Under the pieces are notes generated by a model, which did not search any database, had not been told where the DNA came from, and worked only from the letters and a program-made list of their open reading frames with translations. The position numbers were made by a program, and so were the translations under genes. A stretch of DNA of 12,842 nucleotides from Chthoniobacterales bacterium (GTDB lineage: Bacteria; Verrucomicrobiota; Verrucomicrobiia; Chthoniobacterales; UBA10450), in contig QHBM01000070.1 in assembly GCA_003244145.1 (NCBI GenBank), positions 16,061-28,902 of the forward strand, in the 5' to 3' direction. Shown here piece by piece: positions 3,350-12,842 of this stretch (its first letter is position 1; the number at the start of each line of letters is the position of its first letter).

Positions 3350-4108
3350 TTACGGCAATCGATCGGGAATTCGCTGATCCAACGGGATATCCAATTTGAT
3401 TTCCATTTCCTTCAACCGTCGGAGCAATGTCGGCAACCGTTCGTTTTCGCCGGATGCGTAAAGAGCGTGAAGTCGATCGTAGGCCTCGCGCTCGTGACCC
3501 GGGCATTGCGAAAGCTCGTAGGCCGCGAAACGCTTAAGGTAGCTCGGGGCCTCGGGAAGCGCGGCGCCTTTTCCAAAAAATTCTGCGGCATGTTCGTGAT
3601 CGATGTACTTGTCTCGATAAAGACGGCCAAGCGCTTCGTAAAGTTGAGGGCGTTCCGGGTTGTTCCTAATCCCGCGCTCGAGAAAATCTTTGCCGAGCGC
3701 GAAATATTCGCGCTGGGCCTTGATCCGCAAAGCGAGACGCGGCTGGGCCGGATTGTTGATCGCAGCGGTGCTCGCATTCCAGGCCATGTGCCACGCGGCC
3801 ATGTCCCAAAAAAGAATCACGCGTGGCTGGAGCGTCGTGACCTGGCGAAAAAGAAGCAGGACGCGTCCCCATTCCGTTCGCTCCCACGCCACGTGCGCTT
3901 GAATGAAGAGGCCGTCCGCGACCAGCGACCGGAAACCGCTCAGGGCCGCGACGAACCCGAGCTGGCCGATTTGTTCGCGCAACCCCAGATTGAAATCGAC
4001 GTCGCGAAAATGGAGATCGCGATGCGCCTTCGCGAGCGCATGCTCGGCCGGCAATTTCGCGACGCCGAAAAGCGCGACACTTATCAGGACAACGAAAACG
4101 CGCATCAT
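3350..4108 (-). CDS. Hypothetical N-terminally anchored or exported helical-repeat (TPR-like) protein
   Basis: 252-aa ORF with a hydrophobic N-terminus (MMRVFVVLISVALFGVA). The remainder is rich in helical A/L/R/Y segments (YEALGRLYRDKY, AYDRLHALYA) resembling TPR-like repeats. Its ATG overlaps the permease stop by 4 nt (ATGA at 4105-4108). Confidence 0.5.
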   Translation of the reverse strand: MMRVFVVLISVALFGVAKLPAEHALAKAHRDLHFRDVDFNLGLREQIGQLGFVAALSGFRSLVADGLFIQAHVAWERTEWGRVLLLFRQVTTLQPRVILFWDMAAWHMAWNASTAAINNPAQPRLALRIKAQREYFALGKDFLERGIRNNPERPQLYEALGRLYRDKYIDHEHAAEFFGKGAALPEAPSYLKRFAAYELSQCPGHEREAYDRLHALYASGENERLPTLLRRLKEMEIKLDIPLDQRIPDRLP

Positions 4109-4992
4109 AATTCTTTACGAAAAAAGAGAGACCAGGCGAGGAGCAGATAAAAGCCTGTGTAGAAGAGGCCGAGCGTAGCCGTTTTCAGGAAAAGCGCCAG
4201 CGGGATGGCGTTCCCGGCGATGATATCGTCCGTCCGATTGAACAGCTGCAGATCGGGGAAGAGCAGGGCCACGAGCGCGAGAAGCGATTTGGTGATCCAG
4301 CCGGCGCTGTTGTTTTGCAGCCAATATTCGCGCGCGATCCCCTGGAGATGGCCAATGAAATAAACAAAGACCATCACCACGGTCGTGAAAACCGTGGTGG
4401 TGGCGAAAGTGGAAACGAAAAGGGTGAGCGACGCGAGCAAACACGCCTTTACGTAGATGATCGCGATGCCCGGCAGCAAACCGGCGCTGAAGGCCGACGC
4501 GCGGACGGCGCGCAACGCGTCCGCCATTTGTTCCGGGGGCGCGGTGCTCATCTGGCGGGTGGTTTCATACAAAACGGTTTGTTCGCGCAGGTAGAGCACG
4601 ATGAAAAAAAGCGCACCCATGGCGATGATGCTGAGCGCGAGCAGGAGCAGCACACCCAGAAGTTTTCCGAGAAGGTATTCAACGCGCGGGACCGGCTTCG
4701 CGAGGATTGTGTAAATCGTCCGGTCCTCGATCTCCTGTGGAAGGAGCCGCGCGGTGGTCACGACCGCGAGCAAAGAGGTAAAAATGCTCATCGCGCCAAG
4801 GGCGATATCTTTCACCACTTGAAATTCCTGCTGGAAAGTCAGCTGCGCCATGAAGATCGAGGTGCCGATCAAGACCAGCGCGAAGAGCAGGAGCACGTAA
4901 AAAACTTTTAGCCGCGTTAGCTCGGTCAAGGTGTTGCCGGTAATCGCCACGATGCGACCCAGCGAAAAAGCGCGATGACGCGGTCGGATCAT
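4105..4992 (-). CDS. ABC-2 type transporter permease
   Basis: 295-aa ORF with about six hydrophobic spans (for example VFYVLLLFALVLIGTSIFMA and LLGVLLLLALSIIAMGALFFIVL). It has 4-nt start/stop overlaps with the ATPase gene (4989-4992) and the downstream gene (4105-4108). Confidence 0.7.
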   Translation of the reverse strand: MIRPRHRAFSLGRIVAITGNTLTELTRLKVFYVLLLFALVLIGTSIFMAQLTFQQEFQVVKDIALGAMSIFTSLLAVVTTARLLPQEIEDRTIYTILAKPVPRVEYLLGKLLGVLLLLALSIIAMGALFFIVLYLREQTVLYETTRQMSTAPPEQMADALRAVRASAFSAGLLPGIAIIYVKACLLASLTLFVSTFATTTVFTTVVMVFVYFIGHLQGIAREYWLQNNSAGWITKSLLALVALLFPDLQLFNRTDDIIAGNAIPLALFLKTATLGLFYTGFYLLLAWSLFFRKEL

Positions 4993-5861
4993 GGCGTGTC
5001 CCGACGTGTTTGTTCCCGCGGCGACTCGGTCGCTTCGAGGAAGACTCGCTCCAGCGAAGTGCGGGGCCGGCGCCGGTCCAGCACGCGCGCCCCGCGTTTC
5101 GATGCCAGGGTTTCGATTTCGCCGAGCAATTCGGGAGACGCGTTTTCCAAAACGAGCTCTGTTTGATTTTCGATTCCGAGCAGATCGTCGAGAGCGCCTT
5201 CGCGGACGAGAACGCCATTGGCAAGAATACCGACGCGATCGCAGATCTCCTGCACTTGTCCGAGAAGATGCGACGAGAGCAGAACAGTGATGCCGCGCTC
5301 TTTCAGGTGAAGGATGAGGTCCCGAATTTCGCCCGCACCGGCGGGATCGACGCCGGCGGTCGGCTCATCCAGGACGACGAGCGCCGGTTCGTGGACGAGC
5401 GCCTGGGCCAGACCGATGCGTTGGAGCATCCCTTTGGAATAACCGCCGAGGCGGCGCTTGCGTGCATTCGTTAGGCCGACGAGCGCGAGCAGTTCCTCCA
5501 CGCGATTCTTCAAGGCCGCGCCGCGCAATCCGCCCAGCTTCCCATGGAAGCGCAACGTTTCTTCGCCGGTGAGATACTTGTGGAAATACGGACTCTCCGG
5601 CAGGAACCCGACCGCTTCGCGGCTGGCGACGAGGTTGCTGTCTTTTCCAAAGATTTCCGCCCGGCCCTTTGTCGGCGGGACCAGGCCGAGAATGATCTTG
5701 AGCGTCGTGCTCTTGCCCGATCCATTCGGCCCGAGCAAACCGTAGATCTGGCCCGGCGAAACGCGCAGGGTCAGGTCGCGCAAGGCCACGACCGATCGCC
5801 GTTGAAACGGGACCGGAAAAATTTTGGTGACGCCGATAACGGCGACTGCGGGCTCACTCAT
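4989..5861 (-). CDS. ABC transporter ATP-binding protein
   Basis: Contains Walker A GPNGSGKST, the signature variant YSKGMLQR, Walker B LVVLDEPTAGVD and the H-loop LSSHLL. Confidence 0.92.
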   Translation of the reverse strand: MSEPAVAVIGVTKIFPVPFQRRSVVALRDLTLRVSPGQIYGLLGPNGSGKSTTLKIILGLVPPTKGRAEIFGKDSNLVASREAVGFLPESPYFHKYLTGEETLRFHGKLGGLRGAALKNRVEELLALVGLTNARKRRLGGYSKGMLQRIGLAQALVHEPALVVLDEPTAGVDPAGAGEIRDLILHLKERGITVLLSSHLLGQVQEICDRVGILANGVLVREGALDDLLGIENQTELVLENASPELLGEIETLASKRGARVLDRRRPRTSLERVFLEATESPREQTRRDTP

Positions 5862-6184: not shown

Positions 6185-6691
6185 TTATTGATCCGGCCGG
6201 GGCAGTGGCGGCAGATCGGGATTCGGCAATTCCTCTGGCGGCGGCACCAGGCGCGGGTCGTTGGAATTGAGATTGAATTGCTCGGCCGCGGGGCGGTCGG
6301 AAGGCGTTGTCGCCACCGAATCAGCCGGGCGCGCGCTCACGGCCGCGACGAGGAGGGAAGAGGCCGGTTTGATTTCTTCGCTCAGGACATAACCCTGCTG
6401 CCCGGTCGCGACGACTTGAACTTTGCTGTAACCGAACGACGGGCGAATCAGTTTCACCAGCGTGTCCTTCGGCAACTTTGCGTCCGGATCGAGACCCGGC
6501 CGCGGGCCATGACGGAAAAAGGCGGCGGAGTCTGCGGTCACGGCAAAGAGTTTGCCGTCGGCGCTGGTTTTCTTGACAGCCTTAGGAGCGGTCGAGCAGC
6601 CTGTGAAAGAAACAGCGAGGAAGGCTCCGGTCAGAAGAAATGATCGAGCGCAACTCACGCCGCAAATAAAGCACGTGCCGCGCCACCTCAC
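6185..6691 (-). CDS. Hypothetical lipoprotein with an SH3b-like core and a Pro-rich tail
   Basis: Hydrophobic leader ending in a lipobox-like SFTG|C. The middle has an SH3b-like pattern (VKLIRPSFGYSKVQVVATGQQGYVLSEEIKP). The C-terminus is PPPEELPNPDLPPLPRP. The GTG start overlaps the upstream stop (GTGA at 6688-6691), and the exact start is uncertain. Confidence 0.55.
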   Translation of the reverse strand: MRWRGTCFICGVSCARSFLLTGAFLAVSFTGCSTAPKAVKKTSADGKLFAVTADSAAFFRHGPRPGLDPDAKLPKDTLVKLIRPSFGYSKVQVVATGQQGYVLSEEIKPASSLLVAAVSARPADSVATTPSDRPAAEQFNLNSNDPRLVPPPEELPNPDLPPLPRPDQ

Positions 6692-7122
6692 TTATACGAA
6701 TAGACCAGGCAGAACGCGGTGGGTTCGCCTTCGAGAAAACTGACGGAAACAAAATACTGCCCGCTCGTCGTCGGAGAAAATCCGGCCGCGGCCCGTTCGC
6801 CCTCATTGTAAGTCTCGGTTGTCAGCGGCTTCCCTGTTTCGTCGAAAAGGTCGACTGCGATTTTTTTCGCCTTCGTATTCGCGGCTGCGGCAAACCAATA
6901 TTGGTTTCCGGCGTAGAGATTTACCGCCACGAGCGCACGTTCGGCCGGCTTGATTTGCCCCGCCCAATGACCGTCGCGGAGTTTAAAGCCGTCATTAGTA
7001 AATGCGCCGGTGAGATCGAGCACCAACCGATGCGCCTCCACTTCGTCATCGGTCTCGGCGCGGAGGACCGGTCCGGCCGCAAAGACAACCAAGCCCAACA
7101 GAATCGCGAGGCGCCGCTTCAT
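6688..7122 (-). CDS. Hypothetical exported protein (beta-rich)
   Basis: 144-aa ORF with a clear Sec signal peptide (MKRRLAILLGLVVFAAGPVLRA|E). I recognise no motif. Its ATG overlaps the upstream gene's stop (ATGA at 7119-7122). Confidence 0.6.
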   Translation of the reverse strand: MKRRLAILLGLVVFAAGPVLRAETDDEVEAHRLVLDLTGAFTNDGFKLRDGHWAGQIKPAERALVAVNLYAGNQYWFAAAANTKAKKIAVDLFDETGKPLTTETYNEGERAAAGFSPTTSGQYFVSVSFLEGEPTAFCLVYSYK

Positions 7123-7928
7123 TTCGCGTCCCCCTTGCTTTGGATTTCTTCGATCAACTTCGTCACGGCTTGATTAAGTTTGCGCACTTCTTCGAGGGTC
7201 GGTTTACCCGATTGAAACGCGACCAGTTTCTCCAGGCCGGTCAGTTGTTCGTTCACGCTCTTGACCAGCGGCTCGTTCCGTAACTCCGGGCTGACGGCGT
7301 TGATCTTGGAATGAATGAAATTAATTACCGCCGGCTGACGCAAAACTTTGGCGCTGCGCTCATCATAATTCTTGATCACGGAAGCGCTCACCACCTGCGT
7401 TCCGCGGATCCAGCCGCCGAGGCTGACGAGGATGACCAGGTCCTGGTCCTGATGCGATTGCATCGACGTTTTCACTTCGTTCTGGGTGGCTTCGAGCTCT
7501 TCCTGGAGCGTGTCCCATTCGCTGTTCTCCGCAAATTCATTGATGCTATTGCCGCGGCTGAGCACGTTCTCACTCACCCCGAGCGCTTTCGCGAGCTTGA
7601 TGATGTCGGTGCCGATGTTCTTCACCTGCTGGCTGTCCTGCGCTTCCACGGCGATGAAACCGTCCGCGATCAGGCCGCCGAGATTGAGCGCGATCTGGGC
7701 GCGATTGCGATAAGTCATCGGAATCGGCGTGCGGTATTGGCCGGCCCAATCGGGCTTGCCCGGTTTTTCGAGCGCCGCAAAAAGTTCGCCCGGTGTGGGA
7801 ATGGTGAGCGAATCGGTCTTGATCGCCTTGGCCATTTGTTCCGCCGACAGCGGCGCTGGCTCCGCCGCGAAAGCCAGGGCTGCGCTCGCGCAAAGAGCCA
7901 GCGTTCCCATGCATTTCCGAAAAACCAT
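7119..7928 (-). CDS. Hypothetical exported protein (helical)
   Basis: 269-aa ORF with a signal peptide (MVFRKCMGTLALCASAALAFA|AEP). It is the first gene of the - strand run. I recognise no motif. Confidence 0.6.
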   Translation of the reverse strand: MVFRKCMGTLALCASAALAFAAEPAPLSAEQMAKAIKTDSLTIPTPGELFAALEKPGKPDWAGQYRTPIPMTYRNRAQIALNLGGLIADGFIAVEAQDSQQVKNIGTDIIKLAKALGVSENVLSRGNSINEFAENSEWDTLQEELEATQNEVKTSMQSHQDQDLVILVSLGGWIRGTQVVSASVIKNYDERSAKVLRQPAVINFIHSKINAVSPELRNEPLVKSVNEQLTGLEKLVAFQSGKPTLEEVRKLNQAVTKLIEEIQSKGDAK

Positions 7929-9333: not shown

Positions 9334-9680
9334 TGGATCATCCGGGCTATGGGGATTTTCGCGCGCGACGTGAGGCCACGGTTTGGCAGCGTCTCAACAG
9401 CGTTCTGCGCGTGTTGCTCGTCGTCGCGACTCTGCTCGTGATCGTGAGTCTGTTCGTGCCGCCCTATAAAAAACTGACGCAGAGCCGCAGTGAAATCGAG
9501 AACCTGCAAGCGCAGGTGAACGATCAGAAAATGTTACTCGCCCGCGCGACGCGCGAAGTGACCGTGCTGAAAACCGACGCAAGTTATCTGGAAACGATGG
9601 CGCGCGATCGTCTTGATTTGATGAAGGAAGGCGAAACGATCTTTCGCCTGGAGCCTCCGTCCGCGCCGAAGCGGAAATAA
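9333..9680 (+). CDS. ftsB: Septum formation initiator family protein (FtsB/DivIC-like)
   Basis: 115-aa ORF with a single TM helix (VLRVLLVVATLLVIVSLFV) followed by a coiled coil (IENLQAQVNDQKMLLARATREV) and the family-typical YLETMARDRLDLMKEGETIF. The GTG start overlaps the eno stop by 1 nt (TAGTG). eno-ftsB adjacency is a common arrangement. Confidence 0.75.
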
Positions 9681-9861
9681 GCTAAACGGCTCTCCGCCGC
9701 GAACCGCTCAATCGCGGCCGTGCCGACGCTCTTGTTGTCAGCGCCCAAGGCGTCGTTAGGCAACAGTCCGATCCGGAAGATATTTCTTGCCCAATCGAAG
9801 GTGTCCCGATAAACCGGGGTCCCATCAACGCCGAAACAGGCACTAAGCGCTCCATCCTTCT

Positions 9862-9933
9862 ATGAGCTTTAAAACCAAATTCACCCTCGCCGCAGTTCTC
9901 TTCCTCGTGGTCGCGTTCAACCGCGCGGAAGCA
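9862..9933 (+). other. Sec signal peptide of the repeat protein
   Basis: MSFKTKFTLAAVLFLVVAFNRAEA|QL has a basic n-region, a hydrophobic core and an AxA cleavage motif. Confidence 0.75.
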
Positions 9934-12045
9934 CAATTAAGTTACGACGTCACCGATCTGGGAACGCTAGGTGGAACGACGAGCACCGCCAGCACCGCAG
10001 GGCAACAAAACGCCAACGCCGCGGGCATGATCGTGGGGTCGTCGACGACGAGCGATAACACTGAACATGCCTTCCTCTACACCAACGGGCAGATGTTCGA
10101 CCTGAACACGCTCTGCGATTTAGCGTCGAGCAACTTCAAGGTGCTGACGTTGGCAAGAGCCATCAACGATGACTGCGTCATTGTCGGCGACGGCATCACG
10201 GTGAACGGCGAAAAGCATGCCTTCTTGATGAGGCCCGCGGTCGTTGATGGCGGCCGGTGGTCTTATCGGTGCTGTCAGTGGGTTTGGATCCAGGAAGGCG
10301 GCGGCTGGTGGTGGGAAAACGATTGTCATTGTTACAAGTGGCACGGACCTCCGGGAAACCATCCGCCGTGTCCGCCGCAACCGCCGCATTGTTGGTGGTG
10401 GCCGCTGCCATGTCCACCCGACTGCGGCTGCGAGCCGCCGCCACCGCCGCCTAACTATTACTATTGTTGCATCAGGGGCCACATCGTCCTGGTCACGGCG
10501 GATGAATGCGCGGCCAAGGGCGGGCAACGCTTCGATTCGCTGGAAGAAGCGCGCAAGAATTGCAGGCCTTACTGGTACTGCCTTGATAAGAAAGTTATCC
10601 AGACAACCTGGACTGACTGCCAGGCGAAAGGACTCCAATGTTACGACTCGCCCGGAGAAGCGAAGAAAAATTGCGACACCAAGATTTGCTGGACTTGCGT
10701 CGATGGAAGGGTCGTGAAAACGACCGAAGCAGAAGCGGGTTCGAAGGGTTGGCGATGCTTCCCGACGGAAGAAGAAGCGCTCCGGAACTGTATCCCGAGA
10801 GAGTGCTGGTACTGTGTCGACGGCAAAGTGAAAAAGGGAACCGAGGCAGAAGCCAGCGCCCTCGGGCTCAAATGCTATCCGACAGCGGAAGAAGCGCGCC
10901 GGAATTGTGAGAAGTTGTGTTGGTGCTGCTTCCAGGGACCTAACGGAAAAGAACTGGTTCAACTGACGGAAGCGGAGTGCAAGGCGCGGGGCGGCCAGTG
11001 TTACAGTTCGGTGGAAGAAGCCCGCCGGCGCGGTTGCGCACCGAAGCTTTGCTGGGTCTGCATCGACGGAAAGGCTGTCCAGGTCCCCGAGACGGAAGCG
11101 GCAGCAAAAGGTCGCAAATGCTATCCTACGAAAGAAGCCGCGCTGCGGGATTGCCGGCAAACATGGTGGTGCTGCATCAACGGACAAATTGTCCGGGCGA
11201 CAGAGGAAGAATGCCGGGCCAAGGGCGGGAGATTGTTCCGCACTGAAGAAGAAGCGCGGAGAGAGTGCAGCGGCAGACCTTGCTGGGTTTGCATCGATGG
11301 CAAAGTTATCCAGCTCACCGAGGCCGAGGCGCGGGCGAGAAACGTGCAATGTTACCGCTCCGAGGAAGAAGCACGGCGGAATTGCGAGAAAAAGACCTGT
11401 TGGATTTGTAAAGACGGACAGGTCGTCCAGGTCACCCAAGCCGAGGCGGCAGGAGCCAAGTGTTACAGCACCAGAGAAGAAGCGCTCCGGAATTGCAAGC
11501 AAAGGACCTGTTGGATCTGTCGAGACGGACAGGCGGTGCAGGTGACTGAGGCGGAGGCGGCAGGAGCCAAGTGTTATGGTTCCCGAGAAGAAGCGCTCAG
11601 GAATTGCGGCGGCGACAAACGTTGCTGGGTTTGCATCGACGGAAGGGTCACTCAGCTAACTGAGGCCCAGGCCAAGGGGAGAGGTCTCCAGTGCTATGGT
11701 TCTCAAGGAGAAGCCGCCGCGGCCTGCAAACCGAAAACGAGTTGTTGGGTTTGTGTGGGTGGACGCGTAACCCAGCTTACCGAAGCACAGGCCAAAGCGC
11801 GCGGCGCGCAGTGCTACAGCTCAAGGGAAGAAGCGCAACGGAATTGCCAGCAGGAAACGAAATGCTGGACGTGCATAGACGGCCAGGTGCTTCAACTAAC
11901 CGAGGCACAGGCGAAGGCCAGAGGTGGCCAGTGCTATGGTTCGAGAGCAGAAGCAGCGAGGGTTTGTGGTGGACAAAAGCCGACACCGAGGCCGACACCG
12001 AGGTTCACGCCGAGGCCCACGCCGACGCCACCAATCATTCGGTAG
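9862..12045 (+). CDS. Secreted 727-aa modular Cys/Trp-rich repeat protein. It contains a signal peptide, two HAF repeats, a W/C/P-rich segment, 13 four-Cys modules and a PT-rich tail. Function is unknown.
   Basis: It is the longest ORF in the window and is preceded by a 181-nt intergenic region. The internal periodicity is at protein level. Individual parts are listed as separate features. Confidence 0.85.
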   Translation: MSFKTKFTLAAVLFLVVAFNRAEAQLSYDVTDLGTLGGTTSTASTAGQQNANAAGMIVGSSTTSDNTEHAFLYTNGQMFDLNTLCDLASSNFKVLTLARAINDDCVIVGDGITVNGEKHAFLMRPAVVDGGRWSYRCCQWVWIQEGGGWWWENDCHCYKWHGPPGNHPPCPPQPPHCWWWPLPCPPDCGCEPPPPPPNYYYCCIRGHIVLVTADECAAKGGQRFDSLEEARKNCRPYWYCLDKKVIQTTWTDCQAKGLQCYDSPGEAKKNCDTKICWTCVDGRVVKTTEAEAGSKGWRCFPTEEEALRNCIPRECWYCVDGKVKKGTEAEASALGLKCYPTAEEARRNCEKLCWCCFQGPNGKELVQLTEAECKARGGQCYSSVEEARRRGCAPKLCWVCIDGKAVQVPETEAAAKGRKCYPTKEAALRDCRQTWWCCINGQIVRATEEECRAKGGRLFRTEEEARRECSGRPCWVCIDGKVIQLTEAEARARNVQCYRSEEEARRNCEKKTCWICKDGQVVQVTQAEAAGAKCYSTREEALRNCKQRTCWICRDGQAVQVTEAEAAGAKCYGSREEALRNCGGDKRCWVCIDGRVTQLTEAQAKGRGLQCYGSQGEAAAACKPKTSCWVCVGGRVTQLTEAQAKARGAQCYSSREEAQRNCQQETKCWTCIDGQVLQLTEAQAKARGGQCYGSRAEAARVCGGQKPTPRPTPRFTPRPTPTPPIIR
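9940..10236 (+). other. Two HAF-family extracellular repeats
   Basis: The first is DVTDLGTLGG...AAGMIVGSS...EHAFLYTNGQMFDLNTL and the second ...AINDDCVIVGDG...GEKHAFLMRP. Both fit the 'probable extracellular repeat, HAF family' pattern (DLGTLGG ... G-x-[IV]VG ... HAF[LI][YW]). Confidence 0.65.
10255..10464 (+). other. Trp/Cys/Pro-rich low-complexity segment
   Basis: Residues 132-201 read RWSYRCCQWVWIQEGGGWWWENDCHCYKWHGPPGNHPPCPPQPPHCWWWPLPCPPDCGCEPPPPPPNYYY. Ten Trp fall within about 48 residues, including two WWW triplets, and there are nine Cys. Confidence 0.9.
10465..11967 (+). repeat. Thirteen tandem protein-level repeats (period about 111-132 nt, or 37-44 aa) of a four-cysteine module
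   Basis: Module starts are at nt 10465, 10570, 10687, 10804, 10918, 11050, 11164, 11281, 11398, 11509, 11623, 11743 and 11863. The consensus is CWxC[IV]DGxVxQ[LV]TEA[EQ]AxAxGxxCYxSxEEAxRNC. Confidence 0.9.
11977..12042 (+). other. Pro/Thr/Arg-rich C-terminal tail
   Basis: The tail is KPTPRPTPRFTPRPTPTPPIIR, a reiterated TPRP-like unit. No hydrophobic anchor follows it. Confidence 0.85.
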
Positions 12046-12112: not shown

Positions 12113-12842
12113 ATGGCCAGTGAAGTGTCGGTGATCGAATCAGAAGCACTCCAGTCGCGCGTGCGCGAATTGCGGAGGTTTCTTTGACGTCCCGAAACTG
12201 GAAGGACAACTAAACGCGCTGGAAGAGCGCATGTCTGCGGCCGATTTCTGGTCGAACCGCGAGCGAGCGCAGGGGGACGTCGAAGAAGTCTCGCGCATCC
12301 GTTCGTTGCTGAATCCGCTGCGCGAACTGGAACGCGCGGTTGCGGATTTCGAAGCACTCCGCCAGCTTGCGGCGGAAGAAACCGATCCCGCTCATCGCGC
12401 GGAAGCGGAAAAAGAGCTCGCGAGCGAACAGGGCCCGCTGCTCCACCGGCTCGAGGAATTCGAGCTGCGCCAATTTCTTTCCGGCGAAAACGATCGGTCG
12501 AACGCGTTCTTGACCATCCACTCCGGCGCGGGCGGAACGGAATCGTGCGACTGGGCGGACATGCTGTTGCGGATGTATCAGCGCTGGATCGAACGAAGCG
12601 GTTTCACTTCGCAAACGATCGACGTGCAAGTCGGCGAAGAAGTGGGCATCAAATCGACGACGCTGCTGGTGCAGGGCGAATACGCTTACGGCTATCTCAG
12701 TGCGGAACGCGGCGTCCACCGGCTCGTGCGCATTTCTCCCTTCGATGCGAACAAGCGCCGGCACACCTCCTTCGCGAGCGTGGACGTCGTCCCCGAGATC
12801 GCGGATTCGGCGCCGATCGATATCAACCCGGCCGACATCGAG
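12113..12842 (+). CDS. prfB: Peptide chain release factor 2, requiring a programmed +1 frameshift: join(12113..12184,12186..12842). The 3' end lies outside the window.
   Basis: Frame 0 encodes MASEVSVIESEALQSRVRELRRFL and then TGA at 12185-12187. The +1 frame continues DVPKLEGQLNALEERMSAADFWSNRERAQ ... FLTIHSGAGGTESCDWADMLLRMYQRW ... GIKSTTLLVQGEYAYGYLSAERGVHRLVRISPFDANKRRHTSFASVDVVPE. That stretch includes the RF2-specific SPF tripeptide (12735-12743). The gene is absent from the ORF track because part 2 has no start and no stop inside the window. Confidence 0.92.
12174..12188 (+). promoter_or_regulatory. RF2 autoregulatory +1 frameshift site
   Basis: GGAGG TTT CTT TGA C consists of an internal SD-like element, a 3-nt spacer, the slippery CUU and UGA followed by C. 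E. coli prfB has the same layout (AGGGGG UAU CUU UGA C). Confidence 0.88.

Follow-up and report, generated by a model that had tools for sequence, protein, structure and literature searches.

A cysteine-rich modular protein, probably exported, encoded between ftsB and prfB in Chthoniobacterales

What does a long, cysteine-rich and seemingly secreted protein do when its gene stands by itself between the housekeeping genes of a soil bacterium, and is such a gene a regular part of the genome in which it is found? This question is raised by an open reading frame (ORF) at 9862..12045 on the + strand of a stretch of 12,842 nucleotides from a Chthoniobacterales bacterium (contig QHBM01000070.1, positions 16,061 to 28,902), the whole of which is referred to below as the window. 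The ORF, which lies downstream of eno and ftsB and upstream of prfB, starts with ATG, ends with a TAG stop codon at 12043..12045 (+) and encodes a protein of 727 amino acids (aa), among them 65 Cys (8.9%) and 25 Trp (3.4%). Chthoniobacterales are abundant, largely uncultured soil bacteria, and their surface biology has been little studied. The position and length of the ORF, the 181-nucleotide spacer ahead of it, the order of its domains and a content of about 65 Cys had been given in an initial annotation and have been borne out, 65 Cys having now been counted.

The gene is genuine and is kept under selection in soil Verrucomicrobia (Chthoniobacterales). Its product is read here, with moderate confidence and from features of the sequence, as an exported protein of the cell envelope or cell surface in which a head, a hinge, a stalk of 13 tandem modules and a tail follow one another.

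Conservation and domain architecture

The locus had at first been taken for an orphan, inserted among housekeeping genes and accessory-looking, and these descriptions do not hold. A word-indexed search returned 50 matches, about 40 of which carry the modules, with full-length architectures down to E=9e-245 and so far beyond chance, and a scan of species-representative genomes (one genome per species) gave 53 loci with a match to the head profile, all of them from Chthoniobacterales, 'Spartobacteria' or Verrucomicrobiota metagenome-assembled genomes. The order eno-ftsB-X-prfB, X being the gene in question, is kept in eight other loci (L002, L007, L008, L009, L010, L012, L018 and L019), and the GC content of the gene (0.56-0.60) equals that of its flanks. 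Unrelated neighbourhoods surround 45 of the 53 genome loci, and no conserved operon partners were found, the neighbourhoods differing outside the syntenic clade and among distant members. Nearly every complete locus has an intact ORF, and the ratios of nonsynonymous to synonymous substitution rates (dN/dS) relative to six syntenic orthologues are 0.07-0.10 in the head and, over the last three modules, 0.10-0.15, values that are approximate because dS exceeds 1. Intact reading frames together with these ratios (0.07-0.15) indicate a maintained gene and not a pseudogene remnant in relatives, which would have told against its novelty. The number of modules ranges from 3 to 18 in intact ORFs and is 5, 7, 7, 10, 11, 11, 13 and 14 among the syntenic orthologues.

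The first 24 residues (9862..9933, +; MSFKTKFTLAAVLFLVVAFNRAEA, then QL) have, by eye, the makeup of a signal peptide, with an n-region that is basic, a hydrophobic core of 13 residues and AEA at positions -3 to -1, and since this layout and the A-x-A/QL junction recur in the orthologues, the protein is probably exported by the Sec pathway.

The head (aa 25-174; 9934..10383, +) consists of two HAF repeats followed by Trp/Cys-rich strands (CCQWVWIQEGGGWWWE..C.CYKWHG). The TIGR02913 profile (HAF_rpt) scores 63.1 bits in two stretches of the full protein and 68.4 bits with the head alone, the curated cutoff being 22.65 bits. An AlphaFold2 model of the mature residues 1-178, built from 25 homologues, shows a single all-beta domain, with a mean predicted local distance difference test score (pLDDT) of 83 and a predicted template modelling score (pTM) of 0.78; it has 11 strands up to mature residue ~136, and its confidence is high to ~150. 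The CCQWVWIQEGGGWWWE..C.CYKWHG segment supplies the last four of these strands, so that the Trp/Cys/Pro-rich segment recognized earlier does exist, its Trp/Cys-rich part folding with the HAF repeats as one beta domain instead of standing apart. The head is the most conserved part of the protein, with 57-76% identity among 24 homologues vs a mean column identity of ~42% for the modules. A Foldseek comparison of the head with the PDB gave nothing significant (best E=0.2), and PDB sequence profiles gave no match. Several Cys of the head change together in the alignment (aa 155, 157 and 170): DCHC is replaced by SQS or SHS in several sequences, and PPC by PPF where GCCC appears. Eight homologues of the head family have no modules (L025, L026, L038-L041, L052 and L053; 300-520 aa, 8-11 Cys), which indicates that the HAF/Trp-rich head is also joined to other C-terminal regions.

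Between head and stalk lies a Pro/Cys/Trp-rich hinge (aa 175-199, PHCWWWPLPCPPDCGCEPPPPPPNY; 10384..10458, +) with 11 Pro and 4 Cys in 25 residues, along which the pLDDT of the AlphaFold2 model drops from 63 to 42; its first half is conserved and its poly-Pro part varies in length. Head and hinge together hold 11 Cys, and the Cys totals of the orthologues are a mixture of odd and even numbers.

The protein ends in a short basic Pro/Thr-rich tail (aa 705-727, QKPTPRPTPRFTPRPTPTPPIIR; 11974..12042, +) with 9 Pro, 5 Thr, 5 Arg/Lys and no acidic residue. The same composition prevails over 68 unique tails of the family (28% Pro, 21% Ser/Thr, 19% Lys/Arg and 3% Asp/Glu), which range from 11 to 138 aa and end in R in 44 cases and in IR in 23. 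The DNA of the tail is in large part a 12-nucleotide tandem repeat (GCCCACACCGAG, 4.2 copies with 82% matches at 11979-12029), so that slippage could alter the length of the tail.

The same modules and the same type of basic Pro/Thr tail recur in secreted proteins of this lineage that have a FecR head (P0025, P0028, P0035-P0040 and P0042; loci L005/L006). In one of them, P0025, a stretch of 258 aa matches the last six modules and the tail of the window protein colinearly at 71% identity, which points to head swapping or gene conversion between paralogues. At one locus (L003, the P0014 locus; 3734-5499) a paralogue lies divergently beside a HisKA_3/GerE two-component gene pair, a single case that might hint at regulated expression.

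Cysteine pairs and the modelled fold of the module

The stalk (aa 200-704; 10459..11973, +) was delimited with a hidden Markov model derived from the internal repeats and consists of 13 tandem modules of ~38 aa, which start at aa 200, 236, 274, 313, 351, 395, 435, 472, 511, 548, 586, 626 and 666, are mutually 27-78% identical and share the consensus xxCW(C/V)CIDGxVxQxTEAE(C/A)xARGxQCYxSxEEAxRNC. At the DNA level a 111-bp period with 2.3 copies (11350-11608) points to recent duplication. The earlier count of 13 four-Cys modules was right as to the number of copies and slightly wrong as to the Cys, since the copy at aa 351-394 has six and only the other 12 have four. Among these 12, three patterns are found, CxCxCC in nine modules, xCCCxC in two and xxCCCC in one.

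Presence of Cys was tabulated at six columns of the module (c3, c5, c6, c19, c26 and c37). In close homologues, which supplied 196 unique modules, Cys is present at c6 and c37 of every module scored, c5 co-occurs with c19 (odds ratio 90, p=2e-30) and c3 with c26 (odds ratio 28, p=1e-10). The same two associations are found in 381 unique modules from distant proteins (c3-c26, odds ratio 824, p=7e-76; c5-c19, odds ratio 422, p=4e-35). The commonest state among these distant modules is 'GWCC...C...C', with the pairs c5-c19 and c6-c37 (261 of 381), followed by the six-Cys state (73 of 381); the 'CWxC...C...C' state, with c3-c26 and c6-c37, accounts for just 28 of them, yet for nine of the 13 modules of the window protein. 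The residues would accordingly be linked as c3-c26, c5-c19 and c6-c37, with two predicted disulfides in each four-Cys copy and three in the six-Cys copy. That Cys are gained and lost in pairs speaks for two or three disulfides in each module, and a metal site with four ligands would not be expected to behave in this way. The protein had initially been described as disulfide-stabilised or metal-loaded; the co-variation favours the first of these options and goes against the second, including a Cys4 site of the zinc-ribbon or zinc-knuckle type, whose four ligands would be conserved and lost as one set.

A model of three consecutive modules (aa 472-584), predicted by AlphaFold2 from 56 aligned tri-modules, has a pLDDT of 88.5 and a pTM of 0.49, so that the orientation between modules is not fixed, though each module is well defined. 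The modelled module runs from a strand-turn-strand hairpin through a short helix and a one-residue bridge at the Tyr after c26 to a second helix, which ends at c37. Placed on this model, T15-x-x-E18 and S/T29-x-x-E32 would be helix N-capping boxes, D/N8-G9 would make the hairpin turn and G23-G24 the turn that ends helix 1, and W4, Y/F27 and the invariant A33 may form a mini-core. All conserved positions of the module can thus be given a plausible structural role, and no obvious ligand site is left over, which is why the modules are read as a spacer. The ~38-aa module may provisionally be regarded as a new fold.

An exhaustive profile search of 1.84 billion representative proteins detected modules in 345 clusters (50% identity) at E<=1e-3, and nearly all of these clusters begin with a signal-peptide-like sequence; many of the proteins carry the modules directly after the signal peptide and ahead of large regions. 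CARDB is found beside the modules in 11 of 47 cases, and the other partners comprise TSP_3, Kre9-like Ig, TIG, PKD, SdrD_B, BNR/sortilin, CBM96, LGFP and FG-GAP domains as well as peptidases M35, M12A, C1, C13 and C25, all of them extracellular. The GC content of distant module-bearing genes (0.46 and 0.685, vs 0.59 here) suggests, as a matter of base composition only, that they belong to other lineages; on the taxonomy of the distant members, neither P0066 nor a di-module profile gave a useful match in word-indexed searches.

Functional interpretation and rival explanations

The explanation that best accommodates these observations is that of a Sec-exported, oxidatively folded envelope or surface protein. 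Its head would carry a specific binding function, and the modules would be arranged like beads on a string as a spacer of variable reach, whose length evolves quickly. The short basic Pro/Thr tail would attach the protein or retain it.

Several points weigh against this explanation or narrow it. No signal for outer-membrane sorting was seen: neither PEP-CTERM (PF07589) nor an autotransporter domain (PF03797) was matched in Pfam or NCBIfam at E<=10, and the putative signal peptide has no Cys that could form a lipobox, so that residence in the periplasm is as likely as display on the surface. Of the two, the FecR-headed paralogues rather suggest the periplasm. The wide differences in stalk length speak against a ruler of fixed distance, and the odd number of Cys (65 in total, 11 in head and hinge) implies that at least one Cys is unpaired or that pairing occurs between molecules. 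The head is without a structural neighbour that would point to a ligand, and the selection estimates are, as said, approximate.

A first alternative, possible if unlikely, gives the binding role to the modules themselves, which would form a multivalent adhesin or lectin-like array, each copy binding a repeated ligand such as a polysaccharide, the cell wall or a mineral surface, with the head as an accessory. Hevein and other carbohydrate-binding modules are typically small, rich in disulfides and provided with conserved aromatic residues and Ser/Thr, and W4, Y/F27 and the Ser/Thr of the present module resemble these features, a likeness that serves as a lead only. The modules of other proteins adjoin CBM96, LGFP, CARDB and BNR domains, often at the N-terminus and not as a C-terminal stalk, and an expansion in copy number would fit selection for avidity. 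However, a structural role is plausible for all strongly conserved positions of the module, with no obvious ligand site remaining, the head is better conserved than the modules, and neither sequence nor structure comparisons gave a match to any carbohydrate-binding module.

A more far-reaching reading, which we consider doubtful, takes the module for an undescribed disulfide-stapled fold, and the array with the tail for a lineage-specific cassette of Chthoniobacterales for display or attachment that receives in some proteins a HAF/Trp-rich head and in others a FecR head, the tail acting as a new envelope sorting or retention signal.

Improbable, next, is a role as a periplasmic partner or regulator, according to which HAF- and FecR-headed proteins contact outer-membrane receptors or the cell wall, and the conserved place beside ftsB might reflect a function related to the envelope or to division. 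The FecR domain acts in the periplasm in the systems in which it has been characterised, and the sister architecture with this domain (PF04773), the absence of any outer-membrane export signal from the Pfam and NCBIfam results and the ftsB-prfB position kept in eight other loci all agree with such a role. The agreement ends with the 45 of 53 loci that lie in unrelated neighbourhoods, with partner domains in the wider family that are typical of secreted or surface proteins, and with the extent of 13-18 extended modules, which by a rough estimate probably exceeds the width of the periplasm.

It is very improbable that the stalk is a tandem array of Kazal-like protease inhibitors or of prodomain-like units. 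The only module-sized resemblance in Foldseek is to a Kazal-type domain (3pis), the predicted disulfide topology of the module (1-5, 2-4, 3-6) equals that of Kazal domains, and distant members of the family carry M35, M12A, C1, C13 and C25 peptidase domains. The Foldseek match is not significant, though, profile comparison and Pfam give no trace of Kazal homology (hhalign probability 0.1%; no Pfam Kazal match at E<=10), the adjacency of Cys2 and Cys3 leaves no reactive-site loop, and no peptidase partner is encoded in the neighbourhood of the gene.

Least probable of all is a protein loaded with metal (Zn, Cu or Fe-S) or active in redox chemistry through CxxC. Nine of the 13 modules, with CWxC and two distal Cys, look formally Cys4-like, and a zinc-finger domain (1wjv, E=6.2) appears among the weak Foldseek matches. 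Against this, Cys come and go in pairs and not four at a time: c3 and c26 vanish together while c6 and c37 are invariant, and c5 and c19 form a second independent pair. The CxxC motif is dispensable, 261 of the 381 distant modules lacking c3 and c26 and keeping c5, c6, c19 and c37. In the model, c3 and c6 are three positions apart in one beta-strand and would by geometry point to opposite faces, and the probable export of the protein favours disulfides.

Under the preferred explanation, that of an exported protein with a binding head on an extended stalk, the locus marks a conserved, strongly selected predicted envelope protein of Chthoniobacterales. Head swapping and the rapid change of repeat number suggest a modular display system. 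The module lends itself to a Pfam or NCBIfam entry and to structure determination, and the three interchangeable states of Cys pairs on one scaffold make an unusually clean natural experiment in disulfide evolution.

Genomic surroundings and relation to known systems

The stop codon of ftsB is at 9680 and is followed by the spacer of 181 nucleotides (9681-9861), which had been thought to hold a promoter for the gene. This is probable: a promoter-like element (TCTTGCC-N17-ATAAACCGGG; 9785..9818, +), recognized as a phylogenetic footprint with a -35-like TTGCCC and a -10-like ATAAAC, ends 43 nucleotides before the ATG and is kept in nine syntenic loci, with ATAAAC and CGGG invariant in all nine and the spacer otherwise poorly conserved. 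Farther upstream, the block TCGTTAGG (9753..9760, +) is partly conserved in the alignment of the nine spacers, being present as a whole in six of them and invariant in its TTAG. The element at 9785-9818 was not called by a scan of the + strand for sigma-70 consensus promoters; from its conservation it may nevertheless act as a promoter, and transcription would then probably start at this element, ~45 nucleotides upstream of the ATG. As had been supposed, there is no terminator before prfB, a scan for intrinsic terminators having found no terminator-like site on the + strand, and the transcript may read through into prfB. Rfam at its gathering thresholds gave no riboswitch or other RNA match anywhere in the window.

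The prfB gene begins with an ATG at 12113, upstream of a CTT TGA C +1 frameshift site (12182-12188), and the gap after the stop codon of the ORF is therefore only 67 nucleotides. The 24th codon of prfB is CTT, followed by an in-frame TGA and by C, the classical arrangement of a programmed +1 frameshift, and a GGAGG resembling a Shine-Dalgarno sequence lies 3 nucleotides upstream of the CTT codon. The public call for prfB, which occupies 12113-12842 of the window, begins at 12231 (341 aa), so that ~39 codons at the start of the gene are left out. On the opposite strand an antisense ORF of 460 aa (10120-11502, -), wholly within the module region, most likely results from the repetitive, purine-rich makeup of the coding strand; the GC skew over this region is +0.16 to +0.20 and the AT skew +0.25. 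Elsewhere in the window, three consecutive small ORFs of 168, 144 and 269 aa (6185-7928, -) have signal-peptide-like N-termini, and no Pfam match is recorded for them; they are situated downstream of a pair of ABC transporter genes and upstream of eno, from which they diverge.

Apart from the HAF repeats, no part of the protein could be assigned to a named family at the outset, and this still stands after searches of Pfam, NCBIfam, PDB sequences and Foldseek, none of which gave a valid match. The same comparisons with Pfam, NCBIfam, the PDB and Foldseek returned no full-length match to a characterised family, the finding that would have deprived the locus of its novelty. For the module in particular, Pfam, NCBIfam, PDB sequences, PDB Foldseek and BFVD contain no significant match; the best Foldseek values for the tri-module are E=2.8 in the PDB and E=0.11 in BFVD.

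Several candidates suggested by profile scores were rejected. Cytochrome b5 (PF00173, 43.4 bits) is matched three times and each time in part, at profile positions 1-26 of a domain of ~74 residues, by the 'dCWvaidGkVYdvT' hairpin; the HPGG heme-ligand motif is absent, and the whole protein has only 7 His in 727 aa. The sole PDB sequence match of the module is to the same hairpin in b5 reductase 4 (E=0.015-0.085). Meg (PF24153, 29 bits vs a cutoff of 27) is hit in five partial stretches at positions ~44-80 of 88, which is taken as an artefact of Cys composition and repetition, and other proteins with the module fall below the Meg cutoff or do not match it. In Pfam, further members of the family repeat these matches or have none. 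Recurrent NCBIfam matches to 'sunset' and DUF406 stay below threshold and all fall on the 'Y/F-x-S/T-x-E-E-A' motif.

Of 56 tri-modules, 42 likewise match the profile of CV_2116 (NF046097) below its threshold (best E=3e-7), as do 16 of the 93 distant di-modules; the tri-module of the window protein scores 15.1 bits on positions 30-57, the profile having 75 positions and a cutoff of 58 bits. The likeness is limited to the 'strand + S/T-x-E-E-A helix start' of the module (profile positions ~30-71). CV_2116 itself comes from a prophage; its structure, solved by nuclear magnetic resonance (PMC3397530), comprises six strands and a single helix of 21 residues in 82 aa. With scores that never approach the 58-bit cutoff and cover the profile only in part, it was set aside as an unrelated prophage alpha+beta protein; its chain is not among the listed PDB matches, by sequence or by Foldseek, the presence of its entry in those libraries being unconfirmed.

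The Kazal-type domain comes nearer to the module in its size and in its order of hairpin and then helix. Kazal domains have the disulfide topology 1-5, 2-4, 3-6, which is also the one predicted for the module. The resemblance to 3pis (a 39-aa Kazal-type domain) is faint, with a template modelling score of 0.43-0.50 on the target, a root-mean-square deviation of 3.3-3.8 Å, E=4.9-6.6 and a Foldseek probability of 0.12-0.14. The module differs in that its Cys1-Cys3 are collapsed to C-W-C-C and that a second helix takes the place of the third strand, and because Cys2 (c5) and Cys3 (c6) are adjacent in all modules, there is no room for a reactive-site loop. Homology was rejected after an hhalign comparison of the module profile with three Kazal sequences (0.1% probability), and none of the Kazal families of Pfam appears even at E<=10.

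Closer relatives are known for the head and for the combination of modules and tail. With the HAF-repeat proteins (TIGR02913, related to DUF3466/PF11949) the window protein shares two bona fide repeats and probably a signal peptide, and it differs from them in having just two repeats and a Trp/Cys-rich beta extension specific to Chthoniobacterales; several of the other HAF proteins among the matches have a PEP-CTERM or autotransporter end, which the window protein lacks. Essentially no literature was found on HAF repeats, a term that turned up in a single paper, or on Cys-rich Chthoniobacter proteins, and the function of the HAF family is uncharacterised. The FecR-headed proteins (e.g. P0025, P0028, P0035 and P0040) have homologous modules and the basic Pro/Thr tail in common with the window protein, but a FecR head (PF04773) replaces the HAF/Trp-rich domain, and their genomic neighbourhoods are different.

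As to architecture, the combination of a signal peptide with tandem disulfide-rich repeats is that of the secreted cysteine-rich repeat proteins (SCREPs), an architectural class and not a homologous family, which have been reported from bacteria as well as from eukaryotes (PMC6262176); small modules that fold on their own are connected by short linkers into an extended chain. In avian CREMP, a structural protein, each module has two disulfides (1-3, 2-4), and the modules touch one another little and form an extended chain (PMC12723725). The four-Cys modules of the window protein probably pair in the same manner. Neither SCREPs nor CREMP are related to the window module in sequence or fold: the CREMP module is a loop over a hairpin without helices, whereas the module described here, a bacterial one, has a hairpin and two helices and is accompanied by a head and a basic tail. 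The locus therefore presents an unannotated domain family within a familiar extracellular architecture, and not a new type of system or mechanism.

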